A stretch of DNA of 64,000 nt from a virus (Duplodnaviria > Caudoviricetes), in IMG/VR virus record IMGVR_UViG_3300028048_000092, positions 1-64,000 of that record; one strand, given 5' to 3'. Numbering within the stretch: position 1 is the stretch's first letter; each line of letters opens with the position of its first letter. Both the position numbers and the translations under genes were made by a program. Below are positions 1 through 61,890 of the stretch, piece by piece. Below the pieces are notes generated by a model, which searched no databases, was not told where the DNA came from, and saw only the letters and a program-made list of their open reading frames with translations.

Positions 1-390
1 ACCTGGGGAAGAAGTACAGAAGCTTTTACACTGCTTGTAGAAGAAGCCTTAAAGGACAAAGTACTACTTACTTATAATCCCCAGTTTCAGTACGGGTTCT
101 TGAGCAACCTGCTTCAAGACCCCTCTTTAGTGCTTTATGATTTATCTGTGATAGAACAGGCGCTGAGGAAAGGATTGAAGTTCGATGAGGAAGAAATAGC
201 CACTCCGGGCAAGTTCTACAGCGCCTGCAGTACTGTTTATTATCCTTTAGCTGTAAATACTATCTGCAAGAATCTCAAGATGACGAAGCAGCCTTCCCCA
301 GGGCAGCTTCCATTGGAGAGGTCTTTGGAGATTTTGCAGCGGCTTTACAACGAAGCTTCTTCTAAAGAATTGCAGTTGCTTCAGAGTTGA
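1..390 (+). CDS. Hypothetical protein, 5'-truncated by the window edge
   Basis: Frame 1 is open from base 1 (TWGRSTEAFTLLVEEALKDK...) through the listed ORF to TGA at 388-390. Confidence 0.7.
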   Translation, partial: TWGRSTEAFTLLVEEALKDKVLLTYNPQFQYGFLSNLLQDPSLVLYDLSVIEQALRKGLKFDEEEIATPGKFYSACSTVYYPLAVNTICKNLKMTKQPSPGQLPLERSLEILQRLYNEASSKELQLLQS

Positions 391-442
391 AGATCGGAGT
401 TACAAACCCTTTACCAAGTGAAGTCATCTCTAACTTCACGTT

Positions 443-692
443 ATTCTACTGTGTGATTACAGGCTAGCACTTCTAGGTTACCTGAAGCAGCATAGGTTTC
501 TTTTTGTTTACAGATCTTAGATAAGTTCCCCCTACAGGACAGAAAAGGAGAATGAAACTCTAAGAGACATCCAATAGAATGGACTTGTCTTTGTTTGTAT
601 TCAGGGGAAGCCACTGTGAAGAGTCTATCTGCAGGATGATGCCCTGCTTGGACTTCGCATTTGTATCTTTAGCCTGTATCACATAGGAGAGT
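443..692 (+). ncRNA. Retron-like msr/msd ncRNA upstream of the RT
   Basis: Imperfect inverted repeat of about 20 bp (449-466 CTGTGTGATTACAGGCTA pairs with 670-686 TAGCCTGTATCACATAG). An unpaired G at 467 follows directly after ...TA, the same layout as the retron branching G. Short hairpin at 470-487 and longer hairpin at 616-659 just before the 3' arm. Confidence 0.7.
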
Positions 693-878
693 GAAATCGG
701 GAGCATTGTCTAGGCCTTACTTGAAAATTCCTTCTAGGGATATAGAGGATAGGCCGCGATGTCTCCAGTCAAGCAGTTGCCGGAGCTGATAGTTGAGTCG
801 TACCGGCTCAGATCTATTCCGGCTTCAAATGATTGTTCATGTATAGTGAACAGCTTAAATGATTCCATAAGGAGTTAA

Positions 879-1823
879 ATGATTGATTTAAATTACAGAC
901 CAAAAATAGCCTGGCGAGCCAGTGCCATACCAAAGAAGAGCGGGGGGTTAAGGTACTTGCTGATCCCCAGTGACGAACTCAAAAAGGCGCAGCACGATGT
1001 GCTCGATGAGCTTTATCACACGAAGGGACTTAAGATCCATAACTGTGCCACAGGGTTTATCCCCTTTAGGAACACTATGACGAGTGCTCTTAAGCATGCG
1101 AGGGACAGTAAACTTATTCTGCAGCTCGACGTACATAATTTCTTCCCGACTTTTCCTGTACAGACAGTTATGGATGCGCTGAAGGAATCCGGTATGTCGG
1201 CAGCCAAGCGAGATTATATCTACGAGTTCTGTGTGTTTCACGGTAAGCACGGCGATCAGTTCCCGCAAGGTTCTCCGACAAGTCCCTATTTGACTAATAT
1301 AGGGATGTTCGAAACCGACTGTATGTTGAAGGCATGTGCTAAGCACTTCGGCTACACATACACCAGGTATGCCGATGATATGTCTTTTGCATCTATTCCA
1401 GATCTGTATGAGAATAATGCGGTAACAGACAGGAAGTGCCTTGTAGCCTGTGTAGCAAGAGTTCTGGATAAGAAGCTGGATATGTCTCTATCTTGGGAAA
1501 AGACCCTATATGCCTTTGAGAACTCTCCTAAAGTCCCTAGAAGGATTTTAGGAGTTACTATTCGAAAAGATCATCTCGGATATAATGCCCCTAAGAAGCT
1601 TAGAAAGAGGGCAAGAGCTTGTGTACATAATTTATATAAAGCCCTGCAGGAAGGGGTGCCCAAGGAAGAGTTGTGGCCGCAGTACAGACAAATGCAGGGA
1701 CTTGTAGGATATGCTAATTATATCCGCAAACACAGCGATTGGATCGTGTCCTACTTCGATCCCTGTATCAAGAAACACGAATATGACTTCGTGAGAAAGG
1801 AGTTTGAGGCAAATGCTTGTTGA
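879..1823 (+). CDS. Retron-type RNA-directed DNA polymerase (314 aa)
   Basis: Motifs IPKKSGGLR, HNCATGF, SALKH (NAxxH-like region X), LDVHNFFP, PQGSPTSP, YTRYADD, ILG (VTG-like region Y). Stand-alone RT of retron size; RBS AAGGAG. Confidence 0.9.
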   Translation: MIDLNYRPKIAWRASAIPKKSGGLRYLLIPSDELKKAQHDVLDELYHTKGLKIHNCATGFIPFRNTMTSALKHARDSKLILQLDVHNFFPTFPVQTVMDALKESGMSAAKRDYIYEFCVFHGKHGDQFPQGSPTSPYLTNIGMFETDCMLKACAKHFGYTYTRYADDMSFASIPDLYENNAVTDRKCLVACVARVLDKKLDMSLSWEKTLYAFENSPKVPRRILGVTIRKDHLGYNAPKKLRKRARACVHNLYKALQEGVPKEELWPQYRQMQGLVGYANYIRKHSDWIVSYFDPCIKKHEYDFVRKEFEANAC

Positions 1824-2700
1824 TCCTCGGCAAAATAAAAGCGAGGCCTTGACTATTCTATATGAAGCAGATGCTACCAGCGGGTATGCTACAGCCTTCA
1901 ATATAGAAAGTTATCGTACGCTTACTATGGAACAATTCAAAGAAGAAGTTGTTCCCACTTTGAAGAGCAGTGAAGCGGAAGGCAAGTTCTCGTATTATGT
2001 ATTGAGAGATCTTTCACAGAACCGGTATATTACATTATATCCTGATGGTGCAGTGGAATATAAGGTAAGCAATGTAAACGAGATCCCTACAGATAAGCTT
2101 ATAGAATTTATCCAAAGAGAAAGAGACGACGAAGACAGATATCTCACCGCACAGATCATCAATAGTCCATTCCCTGTATATTCCTATGTGGAAAAAGGTA
2201 ATATCTGGCAGATTACAGTGAAAACACCTGAAACGAGATTTCGATATAAGCATCCACAGCTGCTGGGCAGTGACGATCCCCCATATATTTATATGCCTCC
2301 CCTTTTGTTTACTGTAAAGTATTCCGGACAGGTGTATAAAGGAAGCTCTGTGTTTGTCCTTAAAGAGGATTCTGTGGACCCGGCCAGGATCGTAAAAGCG
2401 AGACTGCCGTTTCCGAACATCTTTGCAGACGGCTCCATTTGTATGGGTAATACGCATGTTCTTGTAGCACCTGAGAAGGAGCTTTCAAAAGCGCAGCTTC
2501 TGCTGCAAAGCTGGGATCTCTGGCTAAACGGGGAGCATAACAATGACTTGCTCAATAACGCTGTTTATCCTAGGAACTTGAATGAAGTATATGAAAGTAT
2601 TTACGGAGAGGAATCTCCTTGGGCACGGCAGCTCAGAACGCTTATTGAAGTTCTGAAAGTACAAGGTAAATGGGAAGAGCTGGAATGGTCAATTATATAA
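1813..2700 (+). CDS. Prokaryotic E2 ubiquitin-conjugating-like protein (Prok-E2_D / PRTRC protein B-like)
   Basis: Motif PPLLF...RLPFPNIFADGSICMGN with the candidate catalytic Cys, and C-terminal W..WLNGEHNNDL. ATG at 1813 overlaps the RT stop codon. Confidence 0.75.
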   Translation: MLVDPRQNKSEALTILYEADATSGYATAFNIESYRTLTMEQFKEEVVPTLKSSEAEGKFSYYVLRDLSQNRYITLYPDGAVEYKVSNVNEIPTDKLIEFIQRERDDEDRYLTAQIINSPFPVYSYVEKGNIWQITVKTPETRFRYKHPQLLGSDDPPYIYMPPLLFTVKYSGQVYKGSSVFVLKEDSVDPARIVKARLPFPNIFADGSICMGNTHVLVAPEKELSKAQLLLQSWDLWLNGEHNNDLLNNAVYPRNLNEVYESIYGEESPWARQLRTLIEVLKVQGKWEELEWSII

Positions 2701-2891
2701 AGTGCAGTTCTCGTACACATTCGGAGCGAGAGTATAACTTTGAACGCATGTGGCAGCATATTACATATCATTCCAGAGAATGTTGCAGGCTCTCCAGGGA
2801 ACAGACAAGAGCCCTCCTGGAAAGACCGGTAAATACAAATGATTTAACAATTTACAGAAATGAGGATTTGAATGAATCAAAAACTGTTTGA
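2670..2891 (+). CDS. Small hypothetical protein between E2 and JAB
   Basis: Fills the gap and overlaps both neighbours; the start may be ATG 2685. Confidence 0.45.
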   Translation: MGRAGMVNYIKCSSRTHSEREYNFERMWQHITYHSRECCRLSREQTRALLERPVNTNDLTIYRNEDLNESKTV

Positions 2892-3822
2892 TGATGCCGC
2901 TTTTCTTGAAGTCGATGGTCCCACTGTGAAAGGGTGGCATAAAGCCCAGCTTCAGGAGATCTTAGGAAATCAGGAAGAGTCCTATGATGGACGCTTTGAC
3001 AAGGATCTGTTAAAGTGGATCGGGAAGCCTCTGCCTAAAGAGCAGATGGCAAATGTACTTGCCCTGGTGTCTCATTATCCACATACGGAAGTGAGTGTTT
3101 TGCTGTATTATAATACGGATAAGCAGGACTGGCATTTCCATGTTCCCAAGCAGAAAGGCTCTCCGGCAAGTGTTGAGTATAACGATGACGACTATACTCC
3201 CCCTAAAGGATACTACTTCACAGGAACTATCCACACACATCCTAATCTTGGAGCTTTCTGGTCAGGCATCGACAGAGCCGATCAAGCTAAGAAAACAGGA
3301 CTGCATGTGGTACTTGGTTTAAGAGAAGGTAAACTGGAAGATTATCTGGTGTGTCTTGCTTATAACGGGGCACGGTATGATCAGGAAAAGTCCGTTGTGG
3401 AGATGCCTGAGGGGGATCTTCCGGAAGCCCCGCAAGAGTGGCTTGATGCGGTTACAGCAGACTTCAGCCCTGCAGTCCATGATAAGAAGGAGGAGGAGAA
3501 AGATACTTCTTGGCGGAGCAGATTCAACTTCTTTGAAGACGACTGCTATCCAGTTTCTACTTATCGGCACGATTACAGATCTTATGAAAGTTCCTTTCGC
3601 GGAGATTACCCGAGCCCCTTTGCAGAGTTTGAAGGAGCCCCGGATCCAACCTATGTCAAAGATGTCGTCGACAGCATCAAAGAAGACTGTTCTGCTGAAG
3701 AAGCATATCTGGTGGTTCAGCAGCTTCTGGAAGAGCTTGGCGAACTTCAGTTGGCTGAGGAGGTAGGAGCAGCAAATTCTACTTTCATAGAGGAGTCTGA
3801 CAGTACATGTCCTACCAAGTGA
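2872..3822 (+). CDS. JAB/JAMM (MPN+) metalloprotease, deubiquitinase-like
   Basis: Upstream Glu (HTEVSV) plus JAMM motif GTIHTHPNLGAFWSGID (HxH-x7-S-x2-D); acidic C-terminal tail. Confidence 0.88.
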   Translation: MNQKLFDDAAFLEVDGPTVKGWHKAQLQEILGNQEESYDGRFDKDLLKWIGKPLPKEQMANVLALVSHYPHTEVSVLLYYNTDKQDWHFHVPKQKGSPASVEYNDDDYTPPKGYYFTGTIHTHPNLGAFWSGIDRADQAKKTGLHVVLGLREGKLEDYLVCLAYNGARYDQEKSVVEMPEGDLPEAPQEWLDAVTADFSPAVHDKKEEEKDTSWRSRFNFFEDDCYPVSTYRHDYRSYESSFRGDYPSPFAEFEGAPDPTYVKDVVDSIKEDCSAEEAYLVVQQLLEELGELQLAEEVGAANSTFIEESDSTCPTK

Positions 3823-4715
3823 TTGTAATAGGGTGTGGCGGTATCGGCAGCTATGTCTTGGAGATGCTCCCGCAAGTAATGGCATGCTTGAATCTGGACC
3901 TGGCCAATGAAGCCTCTAGAAATACAGTTCTTGCTTCTGAGGGCCTTGAAGGATATGTTAGCAATCTGTTTTCATGTCTGAAGTTGGTTGATGGTGATAG
4001 CTTTACAGGACATAATGCTCTTAGACAAGCAGGAACTACAGGGAGTAAAGTAGCCTTGCAAATGGAAAAAATCCGCAGAAAGGATGCCTTCTCTACCTGG
4101 CTGAATACAACTTGTTTGGTTGGCTATGAAGCATATGTCACTCCTGAGAATATCAAGGATATAATTCTCGGACACGAGCAGTATGGTGCTACACCAGTGA
4201 TCTTTTTGTGTGTGGATAATCACCGCACTAGATATGAGGTTTCTAGGTTTATGGAGGATTGGGGCAGTCCCTGCCTGCTTATCAACGGAGGAAACGGGAA
4301 GATCACCGGCAATGTTACTATCTATCAGCGAGATTACGGAGATGCTTATGATCCTCCGCTTTACAAAGTGTATCCGGAAGTAACTGAAGATGCTGACAGA
4401 AGACCCGATGAGATCCACTGTGATGAAGTACATGTTTCAAATGACCAGACAGCAATTATTAACAATATGATTGCGACTGTAATGTTGAACATGTTCCGCA
4501 AATATGTTATGGTAGGAGGTTCTGCCAAAGCATTTAACCAGAAACTAAGACAGAAAGGAAAAGACGGACAGACACTTTACCAGAGAAAGAATGAGGTAAT
4601 CATAGACCTCGAGAACAACACTATGATGACTTTGAGCCACGCAAAGGATCTTGATAACCGTAGGGTACCGGTTACAGAAGTGGCAGATGTACCTGAAAAC
4701 GCAAAATTTAATTGA
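3807..4715 (+). CDS. ThiF/E1-like ubiquitin-activating adenylyltransferase
   Basis: VIVIGCGGIGS nucleotide-binding loop, LVDGD...N..RQ, FLCVDNHRTR, INGGN, and a candidate catalytic Cys in PDEIHC. Confidence 0.88.
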   Translation: MSYQVIVIGCGGIGSYVLEMLPQVMACLNLDLANEASRNTVLASEGLEGYVSNLFSCLKLVDGDSFTGHNALRQAGTTGSKVALQMEKIRRKDAFSTWLNTTCLVGYEAYVTPENIKDIILGHEQYGATPVIFLCVDNHRTRYEVSRFMEDWGSPCLLINGGNGKITGNVTIYQRDYGDAYDPPLYKVYPEVTEDADRRPDEIHCDEVHVSNDQTAIINNMIATVMLNMFRKYVMVGGSAKAFNQKLRQKGKDGQTLYQRKNEVIIDLENNTMMTLSHAKDLDNRRVPVTEVADVPENAKFN

Positions 4716-4730
4716 AAAGGAAAATTGTAT

Positions 4731-5840
4731 ATGAAACTTGTTGCACTGAAAAATGAAAACACCAACACCAACACCCTCACCCTCAACGTCGAAACCCCTA
4801 TCACCATTAATGCGCTGCTGAGCAAGGAAGAAGTTCAGCGGTTCTCACAGGACATTTCGGCGGAAGATATTATCACCATGGATGGGGCAGACCTCTCCGC
4901 TGTCTCTACTATTGGAGACTTGATGGTCACCGATGATACTGTTCTGGAAGCGGATGTCGAAGGTTCCTATGAACCTCGCCAGGCAGCTGTTCCTGTGCAG
5001 GGCAAAGTTGAAGTTCTGACCGGAGGCGGCAGCGTCCGCAAGAAAGTTATTATCGTGGACGGAGTGTCTACCGTTCGTCAGGCGCTCACTGACGGAGTGG
5101 CAGCTGCTTTCGGCAAAACCAAGGCTGAGCTGCAGAATATGAAAGCCCATCTTAACGACACCGAATGCACACTGGAGGCGGTGCTGCATGACGGTGATAA
5201 GATCGTTCTGGAGGAACGCAAGGCAGGCACTGACGGTGCCGATCCTTATTTGCGCGTCGTTGATGCAAGTGGGACTGTTCGTGAGTATCCTGTTGAGGAT
5301 CTGGTCACCACGTTGCGTGATTTCTTACTCGATGAGGTTATGGGTGACTTTGGAATCGAAGAAGATGAGCTCATTGACGATATCGAGTATATCGATGACG
5401 AAGATTTCAGCAATATGAGTGAACGCGTGCAGTGTCTGATGCTCGACCAGTCAGTGGGAGACTTTGCCGAAGTAACCTTCCAGCACTACATGTTCGATGT
5501 ACCTGAAGAAGAGGAATCCGAGGAAGAAGCAGCTGAAGTTGCGGACGGAGTTTCGGCTTCGCAGGTTACTCCTGCAACTGGCTTTGCAACTGCAGGGTCC
5601 ATTACGGTCTCTCAGGGCGGAGCGCACACGGTGAAGATGGTGGTTGTCTCCGGACAGACCACGGTTCGGGATGTTGTTCTTTCGAACAAGATCCTCAATA
5701 CTTTTGCCATGACGGAATCCCAGATGCGCCAAATGATCTTCAATGTGAACGATGTCCGCAGCGAACTTGATCAGGTGCTTCGCGCAGGGGACTCCTTGGT
5801 CATTGAAGCTCCCAAATGCGGGACCGACGGTAACTGCTAA
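4731..5840 (+). CDS. Multi-domain ubiquitin-like (beta-grasp) polyprotein
   Basis: Two clear ThiS/MoaD-like domains ending VLHDGDKIVLEERKAGTDG and VLRAGDSLVIEAPKCGTDG(NC), each preceded by a more diverged domain and a linker. Lies at the end of the E2-JAB-E1 operon. Confidence 0.75.
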   Translation: MKLVALKNENTNTNTLTLNVETPITINALLSKEEVQRFSQDISAEDIITMDGADLSAVSTIGDLMVTDDTVLEADVEGSYEPRQAAVPVQGKVEVLTGGGSVRKKVIIVDGVSTVRQALTDGVAAAFGKTKAELQNMKAHLNDTECTLEAVLHDGDKIVLEERKAGTDGADPYLRVVDASGTVREYPVEDLVTTLRDFLLDEVMGDFGIEEDELIDDIEYIDDEDFSNMSERVQCLMLDQSVGDFAEVTFQHYMFDVPEEEESEEEAAEVADGVSASQVTPATGFATAGSITVSQGGAHTVKMVVVSGQTTVRDVVLSNKILNTFAMTESQMRQMIFNVNDVRSELDQVLRAGDSLVIEAPKCGTDGNC

Positions 5841-5852
5841 GAGGTAACGCAG

Positions 5853-6350
5853 ATGGAACCGCGTACATTTACGTTCGTGGTTCCTCTGCGGCCTAAAGCA
5901 GTACAATCAACAAGATTCACAGGGAACTACAGCTATGTAGATCCTAAAGTGAAGAAGTGGAAGGCCGCTGTTACACCCTATGTGAAGCATTATGCTCCGG
6001 AAGTTCCGAGCAATATGCCTTTCGAGGTTGTGGAGGCTGTGTACACTTTCAAGATCCCTAAGAGCATTACTAAGAAAGCCCTTAAAAAGATCGAGGAGGC
6101 CTGGGGGAAAGGAGAGGACGTTCCTTACCTCAGTCCTCCTGATTTAACCGATAATATTCATAAGGGACTTAGTGATGTAATTTCCGCCTGTGGAATCTGG
6201 GCGGATGATAAACTGCTTTGGCGTGTCGCAGAAGGAGCCATTATTAAGAAAGTCTATGGAAAGACTGATTCGATAAGAATTACTATCAGGGAAACTCCCG
6301 GTGTGCTTCTTATTTCAGGAAAGACAGCCGAGGAGGAACTGGGTGACTGA
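5853..6350 (+). CDS. RusA-like Holliday junction resolvase
   Basis: RusA-type pattern P...R.....Y.DP....WK and PDLTDNI.K...D......IWADD. Confidence 0.75.
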   Translation: MEPRTFTFVVPLRPKAVQSTRFTGNYSYVDPKVKKWKAAVTPYVKHYAPEVPSNMPFEVVEAVYTFKIPKSITKKALKKIEEAWGKGEDVPYLSPPDLTDNIHKGLSDVISACGIWADDKLLWRVAEGAIIKKVYGKTDSIRITIRETPGVLLISGKTAEEELGD

Positions 6351-6648
6351 TTTGTTAAGAGTCAGGGAAAGCTTCCATAAATTTTTTGATCCTATTTGGC
6401 AAAATGCCATAGTTCCCAGACAAGAGATATATCAGCTCTTCTCCGATACACTGGGGAGGGAAGCACATGTATCTGAAATGTCTCTGCAGGAAATAGAGAA
6501 ATGTTCCGACAAGTTGTTGGAAACTTATAAGATACCTTGTAAGAGATGTAAGCATTTTGTAACTATGCGGCATTTTGTACCTATTTGTGACAGTCCACCG
6601 GAAAGGAGTGTTTTGGCGTGTGGAAAGTTTATTGAAAAAAGCATTTGA
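6343..6648 (+). CDS. Conserved phage protein (DUF3268-like helical domain plus Cys cluster)
   Basis: H..FD.IW......R...Y...S..LG...H...M pattern and CxxC; GTG start with GGAGG RBS. Confidence 0.5.
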   Translation: MTDLLRVRESFHKFFDPIWQNAIVPRQEIYQLFSDTLGREAHVSEMSLQEIEKCSDKLLETYKIPCKRCKHFVTMRHFVPICDSPPERSVLACGKFIEKSI

Positions 6649-7684
6649 TTTTTGTTCGCAGCAGAATACACGATTTGCTGTACATTGGGTGGAACACCAC
6701 CAGCACTGGTATGTATGTCCCACAGCTATTTATGTACAGCCCGAAAAAGATATAGAACACAGCCTTGTTGAAGCTTATCAAGGTAATCCTGTTTCTGCAA
6801 AGCTTGTGGAGAATCCTTCTTTAGCTTATCCTGAGAATTTATTTGTTCCTCTGAGCGGAGCACTGCCCAATACTTTCAGCAACTTCTTTATGGCAGATAA
6901 GTGCTTGTATTCCTTGGTGTCAGGTGATACAGTTCCTATTACTGCGGAGCTGCCCCATAAGCACTATACCATTACACAGGAAATGATCAAGGATAACTGG
7001 GACAAGTTTGATGAAGTGCAGCTGGGTATGTATAAAGGTACCAGTATGGTAATGATGCATATTACAGCTGGTATTGAGCAGCTTTGGTTTGCCCCTCCGC
7101 ATGAGGACCACCCTGAAATGTTGAAATTGAATATAGCCGGAGAAACCATTACGCCTTCCGGCTGGAACGATACTGAAAAATGTTATAAGAATTTGAGAAA
7201 GGAAAAGAAGAATATGCCTCTGAAAAATATGAATGATATTGTTAAGAGTACCCTTGGAGTCGATGCAAAGGATCTTAAATTTGATCCGGAAAAGACAGGA
7301 GCACAGAATGATGGTACTGCCGGGACTACTCTAAAAGAAGCAGTTGCTGCACAAGCTCCCGTTGAAGCTCCAAAGGAAGCTGCGAAAGAGCCTGCTAAAG
7401 AAGAATCGGTCAAAGCTCCTGTAGAAGAGTCCGCTAAGGAACCTGTAAAACGCACACGGAAGAAAGCCGAAGCTACTCCTGTTACGGATCTGACCAAAGT
7501 TATTGAGCAGCTCAGCGGCGCAGTTCCAGAGAACCTTTCTTCCGAAGATGCCCTTAAAGCTCTTCGTCAGCTCAGAGACCTGCAGCTGGCAGCTTCTCGA
7601 AGGGCAGCTAATATTGCTGTTAATTATATCGAGAGCACCGAAGGAGCAGTCGCTAAGCTCAATGCTATCAAGGCAGCCCTCTGA
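6575..7684 (+). CDS. Hypothetical protein with a Lys/Ala/Glu-rich C-terminal part
   Basis: Long ORF with uncertain start; an internal RBS and ATG at about 7213 could start a separate product. Confidence 0.6.
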   Translation: MYLFVTVHRKGVFWRVESLLKKAFDFCSQQNTRFAVHWVEHHQHWYVCPTAIYVQPEKDIEHSLVEAYQGNPVSAKLVENPSLAYPENLFVPLSGALPNTFSNFFMADKCLYSLVSGDTVPITAELPHKHYTITQEMIKDNWDKFDEVQLGMYKGTSMVMMHITAGIEQLWFAPPHEDHPEMLKLNIAGETITPSGWNDTEKCYKNLRKEKKNMPLKNMNDIVKSTLGVDAKDLKFDPEKTGAQNDGTAGTTLKEAVAAQAPVEAPKEAAKEPAKEESVKAPVEESAKEPVKRTRKKAEATPVTDLTKVIEQLSGAVPENLSSEDALKALRQLRDLQLAASRRAANIAVNYIESTEGAVAKLNAIKAAL

Positions 7685-9572
7685 TGTTCATTCCTCAGGT
7701 AATGAAAAAGAGCCTGGTAGCGAGGAATCAGATAGCGGACGAAGTGACCAGTACTGCGTGGCAGATGTCACAGGCAGGTATATTGGTCGGAGAGGGGTCC
7801 GTTGTGAGTTTGCCTGACGCAGGGGTTAGATTGCCATTAAGAGGGGAAGGTTCGGAATCCCTTAGTACAGTTGAAGCTGGTACAGGTAGTAGAATTACTG
7901 TGCTTAATATAAATCCCTCGTTTTTATATTGTAAATTAGGTGACTTTTCGAACGTCGAGCTGTCCTGCATGTACGGAAGGCCTCATCCCGCCCCGGCTAG
8001 ATGTCTGTATATACAAGGCAAAGATTTTTGTAGTGTAAAGGTAGGCTATGAAACTTACTATGCGCGGGGCGTAGAAACGGATTCAGATGTGTTTGCTTGG
8101 GCTGACAACAGTAGTAACAGAAGCTTTACAGCAGATAAGCCAAACAGGTATGCTATAATTGGCGACAGCTTTACTTTTGAATGTACCTATACAAATTTTG
8201 ATATTAACTTCTTTGATATAAAAGTTTTACAGGGTACTGTACAGGTATATAAAAATGGTGAGATGTTCTTAGATCTTCCTACAGGGTTCTGCTATAGCGG
8301 AGGGCTTGTAGTAGGTTGGATTAAGCGCAGATTGAGGGACTTCAAACTTAACAATAGAAAGAAAAAACAAGATGCCCCAAGTTATAGAGAAATCACAGCT
8401 TAAGTTTACTGTGGATGACATCGAAGGGCTGGAAGTTGCACAGGGAAGTTTCAAGACTCCTGCAGGCACTATCAGAGTACCTCAGTCGAAGCTGAGAGGA
8501 AAAAAGCAGCCTTCTCCGGTAATATCTACAGAGAAACCGCATGAAACTCCCAGGCAGGAAGTTCCCAGATGTACAGGACTTGTAACGGCTCCCGAACAGG
8601 TTTCCTTTGTAACTCCAATGGGAACTATGCAGGCTATGTACAGTCCAGTAATAGATCAGGGAAACTTTCTTGTGCTGGGTATGCTCCCCCAGTCCTTTAC
8701 ACCGGTATCGTATTCCGAGAACAAGGATCTGGTACTAACTGTAAAAGGAACATCGTTTAAGGACTGTAAAGTTGTATTTACAGGCTGCAAGTTTACAGAT
8801 CCTTTATACAGAACAACTTATATGATTTTGATGAAGGTGTGACATGATCAAGAATGGAAAACATCTGCAATGTACGTATTGCGAAAAGACAGCTCTGCAG
8901 GATACGGATCCTCCTGTTTGTGAAGAGCATCAGAAACTCAAAAAGAAAGCTTCCAAAAAAGAACCGAAAACTTTAAGGGAACTTGATTCAGAGAAATCTG
9001 AATGATTGAGTGGATCCTTTTTTGGGGCGCAATATGGCTGTTATTGGTCATCTGCGCCCCTGCTGTCACTTATTTTGAGACAGCTAGAGATTGCAATAAA
9101 AAGTATGCTTGGAGGAGAGAACAGGATGCCAAAAGGTTGGAAGAGCTTGAAAGAGGTTATTCCAGCTGTATGGAACACATCGATCCTCCCAAGCAGAAAA
9201 GTAAACGACAATTAAAAAGAGAAAGGATGAGGTTACGTGAAAAAGAAAGAAAAGCGCTCAAAGCAGGAAAATGAATTTATCTGTTATGGTACAATGACCA
9301 GACTGGAAACTGTGCTAGGAGTAGATGAGTTGGGTTATGCAGTTAACTTTACCCTGGATAACGGTGGGGATGCTACACCCTTTCAGTGCTATGTTCCTAT
9401 TCTGAGAGATGGGTATAGTGTGAAGAATGCCTTGAAGAGTATCATGAAAGCTTTTGCCGAGGGGTATGTGGTAGCTGCTTATGCCAACAGCGAAGATCAT
9501 AATCTGTTGCTAACCACAGTGGAAGGTGAGACTCTGGTTCTTATCAGAGGTGACTGGATGGTAGTGCAATGA
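7684..9572 (+). CDS. Run of hypothetical genes (7684-8403, 8372-8842, ~8843-9004, 9002-9274 with N-terminal TM, ~9271-9572)
   Basis: Abutting or overlapping + strand ORFs with no recognisable motifs. Confidence 0.6.
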
Positions 9573-27809: not shown

Positions 27810-27830
27810 GTGACAGTAAAGGAGACAAAG

Positions 27831-28424
27831 ATGGAAGATAATGTAAACCATCCGAAGCACTATGCACCGTGCTTTAAAACTAAAGAAATTGAATGTATCG
27901 ACATTACCAGGCACATGTCCTTTAGTTTGGGTAATGCATTCAAGTATGTATGGAGGGCAGGCAGCAAAGGTGACCCTTGGAAAGCCGTGGAAGATCTTTC
28001 CAAAGCCGAATGGTATCTGCATGACTACCAATATAGTACTGCACAGCTTAAAGAAGATTTGACTGTAGCTAAAGAGCTGTTTATTCTACTCGAGAGAGAA
28101 GATACGCTTAAATGGCGTGTCTTAAGAGATATCGTAACTGGTAAGATAAGAGAAGCTTTGATAGGCGTAGATTCGCTTAAAAAGGAAATGACTCCTGACT
28201 TTGTCTGGGAGAACGATCTGGTAGCAGGCGACTTCAGTGCCCGTAAGGTAGTCGAACCTGTATACTGTGATGATATTCCTTTTGAATTGCTTGAAGGAAG
28301 GAACAACAGTCCTATCGATCCGCACCTCATTCTGGATGATCCAGATCTTGCAAATAAAGTTGAGGATGCACTTAAGACTGTCAGGGAATATAAACAATTC
28401 CTGGAAACGGTGGTGCAGAGTTGA
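27831..28424 (+). CDS. DUF3310 (T7 gp1.7 nucleotide-kinase-like) domain protein
   Basis: DNVNHPKHY, IECID, F.LGNAFKY.WRAG.KG, EDL.KA.WYL. Confidence 0.8.
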   Translation: MEDNVNHPKHYAPCFKTKEIECIDITRHMSFSLGNAFKYVWRAGSKGDPWKAVEDLSKAEWYLHDYQYSTAQLKEDLTVAKELFILLEREDTLKWRVLRDIVTGKIREALIGVDSLKKEMTPDFVWENDLVAGDFSARKVVEPVYCDDIPFELLEGRNNSPIDPHLILDDPDLANKVEDALKTVREYKQFLETVVQS

Positions 28425-43942: not shown

Positions 43943-44227
43943 AAAGGTTTGGTATATTTATTCTACTTATAGAGGGGTTTCTTCTACAGGACCTTTTTAT
44001 AAATCAAAAAAGAAAGCCAGGGAGCAGCTTGATAAGTATTGTATAGGGCACTTGTGTCGATGGCTAGACAATGGTTATAAGAATAAGTGCCTTGTTGTAT
44101 GTGATGATAAGGGTGAAATACACTATTATCAGATACTTTCTGCAGAATTGAATTAAAGGAGGTGCTGTTATGGAGATGTAGCTAAGATAAATTGATGCGC
44201 GAACGATTGAAAATTCCTTTTAGCCAG

Positions 44228-44272
44228 GGAGCTTGCAGGGCGCTGTCCACGCCCTGTGGAGCTCTCTTTTTT
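44228..44272. terminator. Terminator at the end of the early + strand block, convergent with the first recoded gene
   Basis: GGGAGCTT-GCAGGGCG...CGCCCTGT-GGAGCTCT followed by a T tract. Confidence 0.65.
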
Positions 44273-44281
44273 ACATATCAG

Positions 44282-44758
44282 TCAGATTACTGTATAGAAC
44301 ATCAATCCCTGACTGAGCTATGTGAGTTTGTTCTAAGTCTCTTCTTTAGTATAATAGTTGCTTAGAGATATGGAAAATGAGTTTGACAGCTATGCCAGTT
44401 TTTCATCTACCTAAATCTTTGTATAGTAGTCAGAAAACTTTTCTTTGATACTACTTAAAGAGTTAGATATCTCACTTATAATATCGTTTATCTGTTCTAT
44501 AGTATAATAGTCTTGAAAACGACTCTGTAATTCAGACAGAGAGTTTGAGATATCTGCCAGAAACTGATCTATTTCATTTTTTGTATAATAGTTGCTGAGA
44601 TCTGTCTGGGGAGGGATCTCTACTACGTTACCGTTGGGCAGCTTTGCTTTCTGCTTTATTGCGCCGTTCTCTATTGTTTTATAAACAAGAACTGTTCCCT
44701 GCAATATATTCGAGTTAGCAAAAGAGCTGTCGGATTCTATTTTCTATACTCTGGCCAT
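44282..44758 (-). CDS. TAG-recoded virion-type protein with YYTKxE repeats (158 aa, 5 in-frame TAG)
   Basis: RBS TAAGGA, MARV*KIESDSS...AKLPNG...; four YYTK/YYTI repeats continue through the TAGs to TGA. The N-terminus resembles that of 59107. Confidence 0.8.
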
Positions 44759-44946
44759 TTTTAAGTCCTTATCTAGTTCATATAAGGGTACTTGGTAAAG
44801 TGTATAAAGACCTTGTAAAAGAGCTAAAAAACAGGCCCTTTTTTGGCATAATAAGTTGAAGGAGATTACAAGGTTGTAATCTTAAAAATTTAATCCTTCC
44901 TGGACAACTGTCCAGTTTCTTTAATGCCATAATAAAGGAAGTTAAA

Positions 44947-45318
44947 ATGGCACTTTAGAAAATCAGTTCGGTGAGAGCAGCCGCTCTCCTCGTCGCCACT
45001 GCAACCAATGTCTCCGATTTCAAGGACTCGAAAGAGTACCTGTTACAGGAGATATAGAGAGCGATGGTAAAAGGAGATTCTCAACTGGGAGTATATGAGT
45101 AGGCTGTAAAAGGCCTGCTCTTGTAGTACCCGGGAGAGGATAAGGAAGCTCTCACTGAACAAGTGATAAACCGTCTGTAGAAGGACTTACCGAAGTTCTA
45201 TCAGAAGTCCTTGAAAGTCTATAGATGGCTCAAATGGGGGCTGCTCCCCGGAATGGCTTTAGCCTTTGGCTGCGGGATCCTGTGTGGATTCTGCTGCAAA
45301 GGGTTGGGGCTGTTCTGA
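44947..45318 (+). CDS. TAG-recoded protein with C-terminal TM helix (123 aa, 5 TAG)
   Basis: RBS AAGGA, MAL*KISSVR...QEI*RAM...RL*KDLP...WGLLPGMALAFGCGILCGF; ends in TGA. Confidence 0.65.
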
Positions 45319-45517
45319 ACGCAGTTATACATATTAGAGCTGGATTTCGCTTGCCCCGGGGAATTGGCCCCCGAATGCCGCGAACCAGCTTTATTTGTTT
45401 ACCGTCTCAGTGTCTCTAGGCCAAAAGAGACGTCGTCCTGAGCAAGACGTTAAAAGGCTCCGCGCTTTTTCCTTAAGAGGGCCTCTTCTATTTTGTTTTT
45501 CTTTTTATTTCCTTATT

Positions 45518-46290
45518 GTTTTGTAGAAGAGACTCTCCTAAGGCGAAAGCTAAAGGCTTCAGTTCACCAGAGCCTGCAATAATAATCTGGCGAACCGGTC
45601 CTGCCGAGGCGAGCGAAAGCAGTTTCGGCTTTATAAGGACAGACCGATGCATCCGGTCAGGAATACAAAAGATGCCCTAGTGCTGCAGGTCAAGCACCCC
45701 AGACAGAAAGGGTTAAAATCGCAGTTGCTCTGGAAGCCTGATAAGCTTTCCCGTGGATACTTCCATTCGCGGACTGGAAGGAGGGACAGAAGAAAGGAAT
45801 GTCAATTCTCTCTGAAGTCCAACCCGAAGAGCCGCCTTAAGTGGCATGAGCTGTATCACGCAGCACAAATGTGACGGGACTTCCGGCAGATCCGGAAGGA
45901 GCTGAGAGGCGTTGTCCGGTGATGCGGACATCTGGCCAGCCCAATGGGGCGACACATGGAAGATTCGTATTCCATGTTGCGGAGGAACTGACGAGGCAGT
46001 GGTTCCTTCTGCAGTCCGAAAGGTTGAGATACCTGTAGGATGTTTGATGTACAGTCTCAGTACATCAACGACAGCAAAGCAAAGGAGATACAGAGGAGCT
46101 ACACTTCTCTGATGTTGAAAGAAGTTTCGGGAAACATTCTATGAGTACAGGCTTTGACAAGCCAAAAGGCTCCGGATGCCAACTGAAATGTATTTTGACG
46201 AATAGCAGCAAGGTTCTATCAAGAGCTAAGCTGTGATGTAGATCAGGGAGCTGCCATATTGGGAAGGAGGTATGGCAGATCCTTTCTTAT
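45518..46290 (+). ncRNA. Candidate large structured ncRNA (about 770 nt)
   Basis: No convincing ORF under either code; dense hairpins including GCGAAAGC GNRA loops; lies directly 5' of the tmRNA-like gene. Confidence 0.5.
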
Positions 46291-46372
46291 GGGGCTGAGA
46301 AAAGTTTCGACAGCATGGAAAGCCAAAGTGCACCTGTCTGGACCCCCGGGGCAGTACCGGGCAGCTCCACCA
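46291..46372 (+). ncRNA. Mini-tmRNA (tRNA-like domain only, 82 nt)
   Basis: GGGGCTG/CAGCTCC-A-CCA acceptor with G3.U70, stemless D-loop ending TTCGAC, P2 GACAG/CTGTC closing about 20 nt, T-arm CCCGG-GGCAGTA-CCGGG. No tag-reading frame. Confidence 0.8.
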
Positions 46373-46395
46373 ATTAAAACACTAAGGAGGAAGAA

Positions 46396-46641
46396 ATGGA
46401 ACTTAGAATCAGTAAACACGATCTGGGTGGAACTCATATAACTTTGACTAAAGCTAGTATAGGTTGTATTGAGAGAAAAACTCTTAATAGAGTTTTAAAG
46501 AGGTTCGGCAAGCACTTACAAGTAGAGGAAGAGCTGTGTGATAGTGTTACATATGCTATACGCGGCTGTGTCCCTACAGTTAACTGGCTTTTTGAAGTTA
46601 CATGTAAGTTCCCTCATATCAAAGTTGTAAGAGAGCAATAA
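46396..46641 (+). CDS. Hypothetical protein
   Basis: AAGGAGG RBS; terminator at 46643-46680. Confidence 0.65.
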   Translation: MELRISKHDLGGTHITLTKASIGCIERKTLNRVLKRFGKHLQVEEELCDSVTYAIRGCVPTVNWLFEVTCKFPHIKVVREQ

Positions 46642-46855
46642 TAAAGGCCTCCCAACTAAGGGAGGCCTTATCTCTTTTTTACATAGCAGCCATTCCAAGC
46701 ACCTTCTAAAAAGTTCCTTTATTATTGGCATAATAAGATGGTGCTGAGGTAAAGGTGCCATAGGAGAAATCCGAGAGCCGGGTCCGATCCCCGGAGCACA
46801 CTTAAGCTCCCTTATGGGAGCGCCCTATTTCTTTTTTACACTGTAGGTAGATTAT

Positions 46856-47302
46856 TCAGCGCCCGGGAGTGTCATATTCAAGTTCCCATCCAAGGGACTA
46901 TATCTTATCTTTTTTAGCTGGGTACCATAGGCTGTTCTGGTCATTTTTAATGTAGACAACACCCGGAGCTATATTTGCAGGAGGAGTTCTGAGTCCCCAT
47001 GCACCTGCGTTTCTATCATAGAGCCCTCTTTCAGGATTTAATATAGCCACCTGTTGCTTTCCCCTGAGATGTGGATCTACTTGCTTTCCCCTGAGATGCG
47101 GATCTACACTGGCAGCAGGGGATTTATATCCTGCTTTTCTTGTATTTTTCCGGCTTGCTTTCTGCTGTGCTTCCCATTTTGCAGCGCCGTTGACTGCTTG
47201 TCCCCAGGGCTACCAGATTCTAGTAGTTCCCTTTTCAACCGGAGCGTTCCCAGCTGAATATGTTGCAGCTATCTTCCTGAGTGTCTCTTTGTAAGTATGC
47301 AT
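46856..47302 (-). CDS. TAG-recoded basic hypothetical protein (148 aa, 2 TAG) with a 27-bp tandem repeat (VDPHLRGKQ x2)
   Basis: RBS GAAAGG, MHTYKETLRKIAA...; open to TGA when TAG is read through. Confidence 0.65.
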
Positions 47303-47327
47303 AATAACCTTTCGCGTTACACTTCAA

Positions 47328-47340
47328 GGGGGGGGGGGGG
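47328..47340. repeat. G13 homopolymer, intergenic
   Basis: Seen directly in the sequence. Confidence 0.9.
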
Positions 47341-47352
47341 CACGTAAAAGGC

Positions 47353-48570
47353 TTATTTTAGAGGCTTGAAAGAAGGTACCTTTTTAATAGTGCGGATCAC
47401 CTGCTCCCCGTAAATGCCCATTGTACATTCAAACTGCCTGGGAGTGCCTTTGTATTTGGGACACCATAAGTAGTCCTTATGATCGAAGTTGAAGCGCTTG
47501 TCATCCCAGCACCCATTGCACACATTGTAATTTATCACTCTGTAAGGAGTATAAAACTCGCAGGAAGGCAAGGAGAATCCTGAAATAAGAACTACAGGCA
47601 CCCTGCAGCACCATGCCAGCCAGGACATCCCTGATCCAAGTCCTATAAAGAAGTCGGCATCTTTTATAAGGTTTATCCTCTATTGCAAAGGCAAAGCTCC
47701 CGTAGCGTCCTCCACTCCCCAGGGAACATGGTTCCATATAAGTCCATTCCCGTAGTTTCTATCTTTGTTTATGCAGTAGACCTTATATCCCTCTTCTTTA
47801 AGAAATCTTATGACAGAGTCCCATCCACAGGGATTGTTCCAGTGCTTTGTCTGGGAGCTTGCCTGTGTGGATATGACACAGTACTTCTCTTTTATCTTTC
47901 TTTTTGCGGAAAGGTCTACTCTCGGTGGAATATCTTCATCCGATACATCAAGTATATGTGCAGCTGTCTTATGCAGTCCGACTTGTCTGAAGTCAATAGG
48001 CTGCCACTAAGTGTTCCCTCCGAAGAACAGCCCCATGTAGTAAGTAGCATAAGGCTTCAAATCAATGTTCTCTTTAACAGAATAAAAATAAATATCGGGA
48101 TACTGCTTCTACAGAAGCTCCTTTATATGGCCTGGCATAATGCAGTGCAGTCTGCAGTGATGCTTCTGCTGGAATCTCTATACATAAGAGAACCATCCCA
48201 GAGTATCTCCTATGGCGCCGTCGGGGAAGTTTATCACAACGTCCTTCTGAGAAGCATCGTAGGTATGGGTAAAGAGGATCTCTTTCCTGTCAGGGGAAAG
48301 TATCTGCAGCTTATAGTTGATGAAGTACATTTTGCTGCTGAACACTTTTCCACCTGCTTTTACAAGCCCGTTGTAGAAGACCGTCCCGGTGTCCTGATCT
48401 GTAAGGGTGAACCAATGGTCTCCGCTGTCCTTGGGGAAGCTTATTCTAAGTCCCTTGTTGAAGTCATATTTAATGCCCTCTACAGCTTCCATGGTAAACT
48501 GGGAAGGTACCTGCCAGTACACCGGAGGTTTTACAATAGGTGCAGGGGAGAGGGAATCGGAAGTCGACAT
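47353..48570 (-). CDS. Autotransporter O-heptosyltransferase (Aah/TibC family), TAG-recoded (405 aa, 4 TAG)
   Basis: YDFN.G, GAIGDTLGWF, PYATY..GLFF, QPIDFR.VGLH, K.WNNP.GW, WNHVPWG.ED.TG, FFIGL.SG.SWLAW, ISGFS, CNGCWDD, WCP, FECT. Confidence 0.92.
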
Positions 48571-48666
48571 ATAAAGGCTCCTGTTTGATGTTTTGCTCTA
48601 AGTGATGTATACAAGGAATATACGCATTCGCGTATAAGTATAAAGGAGAAAGGGAAAGTAGGGCTT

Positions 48667-51600
48667 ATGGCTGACAGCAGCTTCTGGAATATAGGAAATA
48701 TAGAATATCCTGTAATACAAGGACAAGCGGGAAAGCCCTTCTACCATTAGCAAGGTCCTCTCATACAGTTCGGGTAGTAGCTGGTCGATAACAGCTGCCT
48801 TTGCAAGTACAGATATGCAAGGTACTTTGCTTACTACTGTGCAGTTCCTTCAGACAGCTCTTCCATAGCCTTTTTCAAGAACTTCGAGCAGGTTCCCTGG
48901 GAAGGGGGGCATAATATAAAGTTCCTTGATTATACCCAGGAAACAGCCAAAGGTTACCAATGGGGAATGTTCAAAGGACCTGTATATCTGGGCTGCTATC
49001 CAACGGGTCACTTTACTACAGGGAAGTGGCTTCCGGTGGAGCTTCCCTATGAGAATGTTTCATAGGACCTTAATGTAACTTCTCCTTCTCCTTATTATAT
49101 ATATTAGGAAAATGAGGACTACAACTACTCCTTGAAGTGCATGATAGTAAGTTCCTATTAGTGCTGCAATGGGGAGGAGGGCTGTGGAGTAGAAGTACAG
49201 AGAGGCTAGTACTTTGAAAGCTCTTTCCCATTCTGCTATGCATAGTTCTTTGTAAGTAACCTTGATGCAAGCGATGCTTCTCAGGTAACAGCTGCTCTTA
49301 TAGAAGGCTCCCAGGGATGTGTATGCACTCCTCCTTACAGGATGCTTAAGAAGTTCTAGCAGTACGATTGCTCTACAGCTACTATAAGGGTATTCAAGTA
49401 GATGGTGCTTCTTCCAGAAGAACTCGACAGATGCTCTTAGTTCTGTCCCTCCTGCCAATAGGAGCTTCCTGCTTTAGCTCCCAATGCTGCTTTTTTAGCT
49501 AAGAAGGATTGTGTTTATTGGGTTTTATGGAAGTTCCCCCTTCCATAGGACTGCAGTGATTGTTCCAAGACTTTACATAAGATATAGTGGCAGTTGGTAA
49601 CGGATTATAAAGATATCCCCGGGGAAGTTGTAGGGAAGGGGCCTGGGTGGAAGCCCCTGAGTTTCCATGATCCTGACGAGACCTTTACATACTGTGAATA
49701 GGAAGCTCCTGGAAAAGTCATCTTCCAGTGGCAGTATGTAAGGAATCCTCAGCCTTCCCAGGGAGAGATATAGGGCAGCCGCCCCGCTGTAAAGCCCGAT
49801 GAAAACCCCTGCAAAGAATACTGCAGGAAGAACCCTCTGGCAAGGCCCTCCATATCAGACTCTTTGTCAGGTGCCTCCGACAGTACTTTGTAGAAGCACT
49901 TTCCCTGCAATGAGCCCTAGCCTCCTCCTATGAAGTACAGAGAGTTCCTCCATACTGAGTTTGATGTATATGAGCTGTCACTTCGAGTTACTGTCATTAC
50001 AAGAGATCAGGTGAAGGAGTGCTATCAGAGCTATAAGATAGATACTCCCTTATAGGACTGGCATTGGAATCTTATTTAGAATGCTGTCTATGATTATCAG
50101 CTTACAAGCTACTTATATGGTACTTCCTTTCGGGGGACTGAAGTAAAGAACGGCTTTATCCATAAGTATGTTGTGCAGTTACATGGAGAAGAGCCTCCTG
50201 AAGATCCTTCCGGGGAGTATCAGGGAGACGACTTCGACATAGTAGCTGATGGAAGCTCCTACAACTTTGTCGATAAAAGTCAGAACCTTTGTCAGTATGC
50301 TTATCAAGTTTATTTAGCAGAGAAGTGTAAATGCTTTGGTGATTGTATTTCAGACTCCCGTTCCTGCAGCACATCAAATCAGAGTGAATATATAAGTGGC
50401 TGGGGGTGCTCCAAATGGCAAAGTCTTGGTCAGCATTCTTAGTATTAGATAAGAAAGGAAATGCGGTTCTGCCTGGATAAGTGGAGCCGGAACCCGGAAG
50501 AGTCTGTACACAAGTAGTGGGTTTATACTACTTTGTCTGATGATCCTTATTTCTGTGAATAGTATCCCCAGCCACTTAAAAGGGGGATTATCTACGATAA
50601 CTATGTATTTACACCAAACTGTTCCGATTCTACAAGTATAGTGGTATCTTTCCCTTTTGTTTCTTATCCCTGGTGTGGAAAACAGCCAAAAGCTTATTAG
50701 GGATATAAGGCATAGGACAGCCTATCCAGCTCCACTTTACTTCAAGTAGTGGACAATGTAATAGATCTTACCAATACAGATCCTCCGATATGTACCGTAT
50801 ATGGATTTATTGATCCTCACAAGGTGGCGGTTTGGCCAGGGTTTATTTCAGAGCGGCCTGTGCGACCAGCGCCTTGCTGCGGAGAAGAGGCCTTCTATTC
50901 CGATAGCTGTCATGCTAAGGGCAAAATTTATTAGCCTCCCATTATAAAGTGGCCCAAGTCCTGTTTGTAGCTTCCAGCGTACGGAGTGAGAGTTTATATA
51001 GCTGCTTTTGGACATGCCTGGCCTGGGTTCATTTCCACGTAGAAGACCGTTGATTCCCAGACTAAGTACTATGTAAATGCTTCCAAGTTCCTGCAGTACT
51101 TCAACTGTACCAAGCAGTCTTAGCTGTAGTTCTATTAGGAGCTCCCATCGTAGTACCCTGAAGGATGGGATCCGCCTTTCTCAGGCTTCTATCAGACCGA
51201 TTATCTTCCTGCAAAGGGTAACTGGTGCATGCCTCCCATAGGCTTCTTCAACTAGCTGTCCCCTGTGAACTTCAACCAGGGCTCTATAGCTTAGTGGGCA
51301 GGAGGTTCGGGAAAAGTCCTTTTGTATATATTCTCCGGGCATGCTTCCCGCTGCTAGTCACAGTTAGAGGTCGGCATAAGAGCACTTGCAGGGAAGAACA
51401 TCGGCGGCAGAAAAGCTATAGGCGTCTAGATCCCCCTTAACAAGAAAGGGGCAGGAGATAACGGGACCATAGCATATTCTTATGATTGTGTTGATGTCAA
51501 TCAGTTTATAGATCCCAATAGTGAGTACTATCATAAAGGTGTCTTATAGAGAGCCTATGAGAATCAGGATATAACAGGGTTCGTTGCCAATGGGTTTGTA

Positions 51601-52833: not shown

Positions 52834-52847
52834 TAAAGGAGAAATAA

Positions 52848-53579: not shown

Positions 53580-53672
53580 AGGAAATACGTAGTATTTCCA
53601 ATTAGAGATATTATTGGTATATCGAAAAAGTCCCTTATGACGGCTTCTTCTTTATAAACATCAGGAGATCTT

Positions 53673-54446: not shown

Positions 54447-54457
54447 AAGGAACCATT

Positions 54458-55105: not shown

Positions 55106-55127
55106 TAACTGAGCAGGAAACAGCTAG

Positions 55128-56663: not shown

Positions 56664-56849
56664 CAATATGAGCAATATGTATATACTATCCCAGAAAGAT
56701 ATTCTTCGGGCATTCATTGAATAAGAGAGGCATAGATGTCTAATAACATACAACTACAGTCTATTTTCGGGAAGCCTTTGTATCCCCGTATCAAGACCAG
56801 CAATGTTATAAATGATGCGGGCTTTTTAGCTGTTTCCGATTCAGGCTCA
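55170..56849 (+). repeat. Identical 69-bp direct repeat (55170-55238 and 56781-56849) in paralogous tail-gene N-termini
   Basis: TATCCCCGTATCAAGACC...GATTCAGGCTCA in both; followed by TAG in one copy and GAA in the other. Confidence 0.9.
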
Positions 56850-58649: not shown

Positions 58650-58657
58650 GGTGACTC

Positions 58658-59104: not shown

Positions 59105-59106
59105 GA

Positions 59107-60585: not shown

Positions 60586-60600
60586 TAAGGACCCTTTTAC

Positions 60601-61512: not shown

Positions 61513-61527
61513 TAAAGGATCCTTCAT

Positions 61528-61878: not shown

Positions 61879-61890
61879 GGAGTTTTGAAA

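Follow-up and report, generated by a model that had tools for sequence, protein, structure and literature searches.

Gene content and organization of the locus

The sequence analysed here, referred to as the window, covers 64 kb from the start of an IMG/VR virus record of 106,679 bp (IMGVR_UViG_3300028048_000092; CheckV completeness 57%). Near its start lies a block of six genes in the same orientation, which encode, in order, a reverse transcriptase (RT) resembling those of retrons, an E2-like enzyme, a small open reading frame (ORF), a JAB/JAMM metalloprotease, an E1-like adenylating enzyme and a tandem ubiquitin-like protein (Ubl). We refer to the five genes that follow the RT as the kit. 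On the opposite strand, head-to-head with the RT, is a further gene, the minus-strand ORF (mORF), that is open only if TAG is read as a sense codon.

A sequence-only reading of the window had described the six genes as co-oriented and overlapping, with no terminator between them, and had placed them in the early region of a phage. Their coordinates (Table 1) and setting confirm this description. Overlaps measure 11-20 nt for RT/E2, 31 nt for E2/small ORF, 20 nt for small ORF/JAB and 16 nt for JAB/E1, and gaps of 9-15 nt separate E1 from Ubl and Ubl from RusA. Shine-Dalgarno sites precede most of the genes, including AAGGAG 5 nt upstream of the RT ATG. Terminator-like hairpins are at chance level (8 vs 5.3 ± 2.2 in shuffles), and none of the + strand ones in the block lies outside an ORF. 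The adjoining RusA, ThyX, NrdD and NrdG are early DNA-metabolism genes, and RusA is also found downstream of the kit in related loci L070-L076 (loci retrieved for comparison are denoted by L and a number).

The window appears to be read in two genetic codes. From position 1 to ~44 kb, genes are nearly all on the + strand and open in the standard code. Past ~44 kb (44000-64000), long frames occur only with TAG as sense; one late gene (48589-52833) has 1414 codons, including 51 TAG, and another (55113-56663) has 11 TAG. Judged from these frames, TAG is read as sense in the late genes of this phage. Stops in the block are TGA or TAA throughout, so the block reads alike in both codes. GenBank phages gave no megablast match to window positions 1-8000.

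The ubiquitin-like kit

Kit homologues were gathered by jackhmmer over the fetched loci, followed by a check of residue conservation. The E2-like protein, whose catalytic Cys213 lies in PFPNIFADGSICMG, scores at the threshold of Prok-E2_D (25.6 bits; cut-off 25), and no PDB sequence matched the E2 profile. Its active site, PFPNIFxxGxICxG, is of the UBC type, with Asn205 and Cys213 present in 59 of 59 family members and Gly215 in 56 of them. In the JAB protein, which is predicted to be the Ubl-processing and deconjugating enzyme, Glu73 is found in 66 of 66 aligned members, and His121, His123, Ser131 and Asp134 in 68 of 68. Invariant residues of the E1-like protein are G9, G11, G14, D62, D64, D137 and C205.

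The Ubl was modelled with AlphaFold2 (AF2) using 11 homologues. Confident beta-grasp domains were obtained for residues 1-78, 90-162 and 288-360, the middle of the protein being poorly modelled, and Foldseek matched the protein best to linear tetra- and di-ubiquitin, to ISG15 and to FAT10, with E-values as low as 1e-8. GTDG motifs occur at residues 166-169 (nt 5226-5237) and 364-367 (nt 5820-5831), the second followed by a two-residue tail, NC. At the C-terminus of the 11 homologues, a single Gly is invariant and is followed by 0-3 residues; the motif (TDG/TKG) thus has one Gly, with no Gly-Gly pair.

The sequence-only reading had proposed that the kit is a complete E2-JAB-E1-Ubl set and that the Ubl is a poly-Ubl. 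Domain matches and active-site residues that are invariant in 59-68 members bear out the first proposal, and the three beta-grasp domains with their resemblance to poly-ubiquitin bear out the second. By sequence, the set looks complete and catalytically competent.

The small ORF is a different matter. Relatives examined have a 62-92 aa ORF in the equivalent place, and these align weakly; Pfam, PADLOC and PHROG scans returned no family match for the window copy. Assignment as a 'CEHH' protein was considered and ruled out, as CEHH is the Bil E2 itself and the small ORFs have no common motif.

Gene content around the kit varies among relatives, of which L072, L073 and L074 are complete at 170-190 kb. 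Four loci have an extra ORF of 106-142 aa between E1 and the large Ubl (L070:4787-5107, L073:10931-11308, L074:10915-11343 and L075:10910-11275), putatively a single-domain Ubl-like protein on the basis of a GDxV/IxF motif. The window has no such ORF and instead has a longer, multi-domain Ubl. In the L070-L072 group, a 139-aa ORF (L071:8652-9071) between the small ORF and JAB shares 43% identity with a window gene 25 kb away (27810-28424); it may be a mobile or duplicated gene.

A reverse transcriptase of the retron clade

All RT motifs are present in the clade alignment, including IPKKxGxxR, PQGxPxSP and YxRYADD, and motif E is followed by RR(I/V)(T/L)GV, a stretch that we take to be a retron hallmark. 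The RT matches PADLOC retron RT models at E-values that span 2e-42 to 1e-24, with RT_XIII (2e-42) and RT_III-A (5e-41) at the top and types XIII, III-A, II-A, XI and X scoring best. Against the NCBIfam model retron_St85, it reaches 140 bits (E 7e-41), below the cut-off of 235. Scores are nearly equal across retron types, so no particular type fits. Sequence comparison places the protein within the retron clade, as the retron-like RT of the earlier reading implied. The closest cellular RT is only 32% identical.

Table 1. Features of the window and of related loci (L numbers), with the basis of each assignment
Feature	Position	Strand	Basis and details
Upstream gene, 3' part, cut by contig start	1..390	+	51% identity to C-terminus of 213-aa ORF L071:5430-6071; TGA stop
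mORF, 197 codons, 7 in-frame TAG	275..868	-	Homologous minus-strand ORFs in RT clade
RT leader, antisense to mORF, candidate template RNA	391..878	+	Non-coding on + strand
Retron-clade RT, 314 aa, YADD at residues 164-167	879..1823	+	RVT_1 1e-17; PADLOC and NCBIfam models
E2-like (UBC-like) enzyme	1804..2700 (likely start ATG 1813)	+	Pfam Prok-E2_D 1e-5
Small ORF, 73 aa	2670..2891	+	Position kept between E2 and JAB; sequence poorly conserved
JAB/JAMM metalloprotease, 316 aa	2872..3822	+	Prok-JAB 3e-5; HxHx7Sx2D at residues 121-134
E1-like adenylating enzyme, ThiF fold, 302 aa	3807..4715	+	ThiF 6e-11; GxGxxG at residue 9
Tandem Ubl precursor, 369 aa from ATG 4731	4725..5840	+	AF2 model, Foldseek; no family match
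RusA Holliday-junction resolvase	5853..6350	+	RusA 1e-12, phrog_140
NAD ligases between RT and E2 in relatives	L074:5662-7635, L075:5261-7336, L002:8899-10917, L139:2530-4428		Adenylation, OB, zinc finger, HhH and BRCT domains
TnpB insertions in relatives	L072:5145-6646, L132:1-1136		OrfB_IS605 2e-20

A Pfam scan of the upstream gene at 1..390 gave no match.

Linkage of the reverse transcriptase and the kit

Loci were collected with the RT as query (68 viral loci), with an E1 alignment (62) and with an RT alignment (80 metagenomic and 80 genomic loci); single-protein E1 and JAB scans of the viral contigs matched nothing, and an alignment was used as the query. In a quick tree, the window RT falls in a clade (SH-aLRT 100%) of ten non-redundant lineages, among which RT identity is 33-60%. 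Wherever the sequence extends far enough, the RT of these lineages is followed by E2, small ORF, JAB, E1 and Ubl, the synteny that the earlier reading had put forward as a check. RT and E2 overlap both in the window and in L070-L073.

Pairing of an RT with Ubl-pathway genes extends beyond this clade: three further phage RT lineages have E1, or both JAB and E1, as neighbours of the RT, and their surroundings are otherwise unrelated. In a separate clade of 33 RTs, a ThiF E1 adjoins the RT in 32, ending up to ~900 nt and typically 200-460 nt upstream of it. In L005, JAB, E1 and RT abut in that order. In L012, the order is Ubl-E2-x-JAB-E1, then three ORFs, then the RT. None of the remaining genes in the ~7-8 kb flanks of loci sampled from these lineages resembles a window gene. 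Parts of the pathway were found at none of 80 cellular RT loci and at none of 71 metagenomic RT loci outside the clade of the window. The synteny check of the earlier reading thus gave a positive answer.

The spacer between E1 and RT in the 33-member clade contains a hairpin that covaries: 81% of cells are paired, vs 59% in shuffles (0 of 500 reach the observed value) and ≤52% in slid controls. At least those RTs therefore appear to have a structured RNA partner. The hairpin consists of 7 bp followed by nnnCAnnTTG (L016:7429-7469 and equivalents). The model built on it also matches several sites downstream of the RT in L025, L004 and L034, with weak E-values, which hint at extra RNA copies; the positions noted in L025 are 7447, 9246, 10886 and 11872.

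A recoded gene opposite the RT leader

The mORF contains neither TAA nor TGA, and its frame is open only with TAG as sense. Its start codon, which has no Shine-Dalgarno site, is 10 nt from that of the RT. A promoter for it would need to be within the RT gene, where one -35/-10-like site is present on the minus strand (1241-1213). Homologous minus-strand ORFs abut the RT in every clade lineage with upstream sequence, except in L072, where an insertion sequence (IS) splits the two. Four relatives have a minus-strand ORF of 176-186 aa that starts right at the RT start, and the equivalent in L071 likewise opens when TAG is sense.

Several lines of evidence indicate that the mORF is a real gene. 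When the six frames of the window and L071 were compared, the mORF frame gave 159 bits (46% identity, E 2e-52) and the other frames 51-81 bits, and it is the sole frame that links the window to distant clade members. Differences between close pairs fall mostly at third positions (19/12/59, 2/1/11 and 7/12/22 at codon positions 1/2/3). The density of TAG, 3.6%, equals that of the late gene at 48589-52833. In alignments, TAG stands opposite Glu or Asp at several sites and opposite other residues elsewhere. The mORF is a TAG-dependent gene inside an otherwise TAG-free early block.

The family is confined to this RT clade, with four relatives in a set of 5.8 billion proteins, and has no Pfam or PHROG match. 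Its AF2 model is confident and all-beta (predicted local distance difference test 77, predicted template modelling score 0.67), and comparison with the PDB gave no counterpart (Foldseek best E 0.39; VIA-align best Z 4.0). Leads to a beta-trefoil from the ESM Atlas, at 0.90, were not trusted because few features are shared. The case serves as a warning for annotation: in recoded phages, an apparent non-coding RNA (ncRNA) region may be a gene that is invisible to standard ORF calling.

The leader as candidate template

The leader is the only non-coding stretch on the + strand of the module. It contains a 22-nt inverted repeat (445-466/670-690), and its + strand folds with z of -4.7 to -5.0. In six clade members, the RT-sense strand of this region has z of -3.5 to -5.4, and 18 control windows of the same phage range from +0.8 to -4.8, with a mean of ~-1.8. 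Long-range inverted repeats occur upstream of the RT in 5 of 6 relatives at non-homologous positions, and the upstream regions proved too diverged to be aligned with MAFFT. The contig holds no second copy of the leader. Elsewhere in the module, window 1500-1987, which covers the 3' end of the RT gene and the start of E2, folds as low as the leader (z -4.8), and a near-perfect 12-bp hairpin lies within the RT gene at 1525-1554.

Retron RNA consists of an msr-msd transcript with terminal inverted repeats, a1 and a2, and the multicopy single-stranded DNA (msDNA) product is branched from a guanosine 2'-OH. The sequence-only reading had placed such an ncRNA at 443-878. Part of that proposal stands, in that the + strand is ORF-free there and has both an inverted repeat and a stable fold. 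The part that equates it with a retron RNA is not confirmed: the region is filled by the mORF on the minus strand, and conserved structure or resemblance to a known retron RNA did not emerge. The picture of a tripartite retron of ncRNA, RT and effector is unsupported, since what had been named as ncRNA is, on the opposite strand, a gene recoded at TAG. As the module has no other non-coding stretch, a template encoded in cis would have to overlap the mORF in antisense.

Proposed mechanism and alternatives

We favour, with moderate confidence, the interpretation that the block is an early operon of the phage, legible in either code, whose products form a self-contained pathway of ubiquitin-like conjugation that works with a retron-clade RT. 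The analysis shows which genes are present, that their catalytic residues are intact, how the Ubl folds and that RT and kit are repeatedly linked; the biochemical steps, the RT template and the purpose are inferred. By analogy with BilABCD, JAB would cleave the tandem Ubl precursor behind the Gly in both GTDG motifs. E1 would then adenylate the exposed Gly, carry the Ubl on Cys205 and pass it to Cys213 of E2, from which it would be attached to lysines in proteins of the host or the phage. A structured RNA encoded in cis is the most likely template, which the RT would copy into a small cDNA or an msDNA-like product, and the complex of RT and nucleic acid may be a cofactor of the kit that serves as its scaffold, as its trigger or to give it specificity. 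The purpose would probably be to take over the host, to counter its defences or to compete with other phages.

So, is the RT a working partner of the kit or simply its neighbour? A number of findings weigh against partnership, and they begin with the clade itself. Its flanks are syntenic too (upstream ORF, RusA, 6301-6648, 6575-7684 and ThyX), and since the whole neighbourhood is kept, conservation of the kit there could be plain descent and is weak evidence alone. In four lineages, a full NAD-dependent DNA ligase stands between RT and E2; tblastn found no ligase in the 64 kb of the window. In L072 and L132, mORF and RT are separated by an IS605-type TnpB, and the RT is truncated while the kit ORFs are intact: the first ~24 residues are lost, including IPKKxGxxR (motif 1), and the frame begins ...RYLLIPNDELK. 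Furthermore, of the 62 phage kits retrieved with the E1 alignment, 54 are without an RT inside 10 kb. These 54 viral contigs encode homologous JAB, E1 and Ubl, and in 45 cases E2 too, with the same invariant residues and with E1 proteins that are 24-36% identical to that of the window. As a history, the alternative in the earlier reading, a retron inserted ahead of a pre-existing ubiquitin-like operon, is plausible, since with so many kits free of an RT the RT resembles a later addition. Together with the lineages split by a ligase and the IS-truncated RTs beside intact kits, these RT-less cassettes suggest that the kit predates its association with the RT and can persist by itself, the RT having been added repeatedly. 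Coupling of RT and kit is therefore not obligate. Deep nodes of the RT tree are also weak, which leaves independent recruitment unproven; a single ancient recruitment followed by rearrangement would also be compatible with the sequences.

The syntenic flanks, the ligases, the truncated RTs and the RT-less kits all speak for an account in which RT and kit have independent functions within an early DNA-metabolism block and owe their adjacency to inherited gene order. We nonetheless regard that explanation as rather unlikely. The pairing recurs in three more lineages of RT, whose gene orders differ and which have no other gene in common with the window, Ubl-pathway parts are absent from all 151 RT loci outside the linked lineages, and the RT and E2 genes overlap in the window and in L070-L073.

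The candidate template provides the second set of difficulties for the favoured interpretation. No template RNA is established for this RT; the leader is coding on its other strand and has no conserved structure. Its low fold energy is equalled by 1 of the 18 control windows (z -4.8). RNAalifold, applied to a protein-guided codon alignment of the leader, returned no pairs on either strand, and in the close pairs L073/L134, L137/L138 and L070/L071, pairing is retained at 36-50% of the pairs that changed, a share similar to that in shifted controls. The leader has no Rfam match, and R1, the covariance model of the hairpin from the other RT clade, gave no credible match in the window or its clade.

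The same nulls count against the idea that the locus is a new type of defence retron carried by a phage. In it, RT and msDNA would hold the Ubl kit inactive, after the toxin/antitoxin logic of retrons, until a nuclease of a competing phage or of the host releases it, and the kit would be the effector of superinfection exclusion. Points in its favour are that the RT falls in the retron clade, that retrons are modular and have swapped effectors (PMC7736814), and that Bil kits act as antiviral effectors that tag phage proteins (10.1101/2023.09.04.556158). Besides the failure of the Rfam, consensus, pair-preservation and R1 analyses to establish an msr-msd, the block sits among the early replication genes of large phages, PADLOC has no model that matches the partner proteins, and, much as core genes would be, the block is retained by each of the 10 lineages. 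Accessory defence islands are expected to be patchy across lineages. We consider a defence retron improbable.

It is more doubtful still that the leader structure is incidental and that the RT template is encoded elsewhere, in trans or beyond the 57%-complete contig, with the inverted repeat a product of chance or a DNA-level feature of the mORF. The positions of helices are not conserved, the minus strand of the leader also folds below average, a control window folds as low, the other RT clade has copies of its RNA motif downstream of the RT, and the contig is incomplete. Against this, all six clade members examined have z ≤ -3.5 on the RT-sense strand, well below the control mean, and the leader has no non-coding competitor in the module. 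The furthest-reaching scheme, which we offer as a long shot, is a fourteenth, phage-borne kind of retron with ubiquitin-like conjugation as its effector and, as its template, the RT leader antisense to a late mORF that is translatable only after TAG has become sense: leader, RT and kit would be made early, late transcription and translation of the mORF across this DNA would run into the template or use it up and so turn the system off or change its state, and the code switch would thereby time protein tagging.

Retrons are known as bacterial defence modules, and Bil and Cap2/Cap3 kits as bacterial antiviral effectors. Here, a retron-clade RT and a Ubl kit are both on the side of the virus, in one early operon, and the pairing is found in several unrelated phage groups. 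Should the two act jointly, reverse transcription would be coupled with the tagging of proteins, a connection absent from the literature searched, and phages would have a ubiquitin-like system for host manipulation or competition, as eukaryotic viruses have. The IS-truncated copies represent a natural RT knock-out, and the late-code gene head-to-head with the RT opens the role of the upstream stretch to direct testing.

Comparison with known systems

Retrons combine an RT, an msr-msd ncRNA and an effector; types I-XIII have been described, and they are modular (PMC7736814). The window RT resembles them in scoring best against retron RT models of several types, and differs in that it fits no single type and falls below the St85 cut-off. 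Its partner genes correspond to no effector set among the 13, their proteins have no matching PADLOC model, and the system is encoded by large phages among early genes. Ubiquitin, ThiF and JAB are not mentioned in PMC7736814, and literature searches returned no paper that joins retrons to ubiquitin-like genes. This agrees with the earlier statement that no known retron class has a ubiquitin-like partner.

Among ubiquitin-like systems, CBASS (cyclic-oligonucleotide-based anti-phage signalling system) Cap2/Cap3, which has a CD-NTase and an E1-E2 fusion, differs from the window kit in that E1 and E2 are separate genes here and not fused, and there is no PADLOC CBASS match. The PRTRC cassette of plasmids and integrative and conjugative elements (TIGR03735-03737; ParB-related, ThiF-related) supplies the nearest models for JAB (PRTRC_A), E2 (PRTRC_B and Prok-E2_D) and E1 (PRTRC_ThiF). 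Scores are far below the cut-offs (PRTRC_A 27.4 vs 101.8, PRTRC_B 16.2 vs 131.5 and PRTRC_ThiF 30.8 vs 144.8 bits). Among scanned ORFs near the block, there was no ParB-like Pfam match, the whole contig not having been searched for ParB. In addition, the window has an RT and a phage setting. The phage kits of the 54 RT-less contigs have homologous proteins, and differ in the lack of a nearby RT.

A further parallel is with BilABCD types I and II, bacterial antiphage operons for ubiquitination-like conjugation, which share Ubl, E2, JAB deubiquitinase (DUB) and E1 with the window (10.1101/2023.09.26.559546, 10.1101/2023.09.04.556158). The gene order is circularly equivalent, Ubl-E2-DUB-E1 in Bil and E2-x-JAB-E1-Ubl here. 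In type II Bil, the DUB removes the tail after a conserved Gly of the Ubl (BilA), and Ubls can carry as many as three beta-grasp domains in tandem (10.1101/2023.09.26.559546); the window Ubl is likewise tandem, with a conserved Gly and a short tail. Differences are that Bil is host-encoded and the window kit phage-encoded, that the window has an extra small ORF, and that its E1 is a 302-aa protein with one ThiF domain, whereas the type II Bil E1 is multidomain, with inactive and active adenylation domains (10.1101/2023.09.26.559546). The window kit has no match in PADLOC-DB 2.0.0 (2023), which may not model Bil, and an RT is not mentioned in 10.1101/2023.09.26.559546. What is new in the window is the RT-first gene order, the head-to-head late-code gene, the double-site poly-Ubl and, among its relatives, the natural truncation of the RT.

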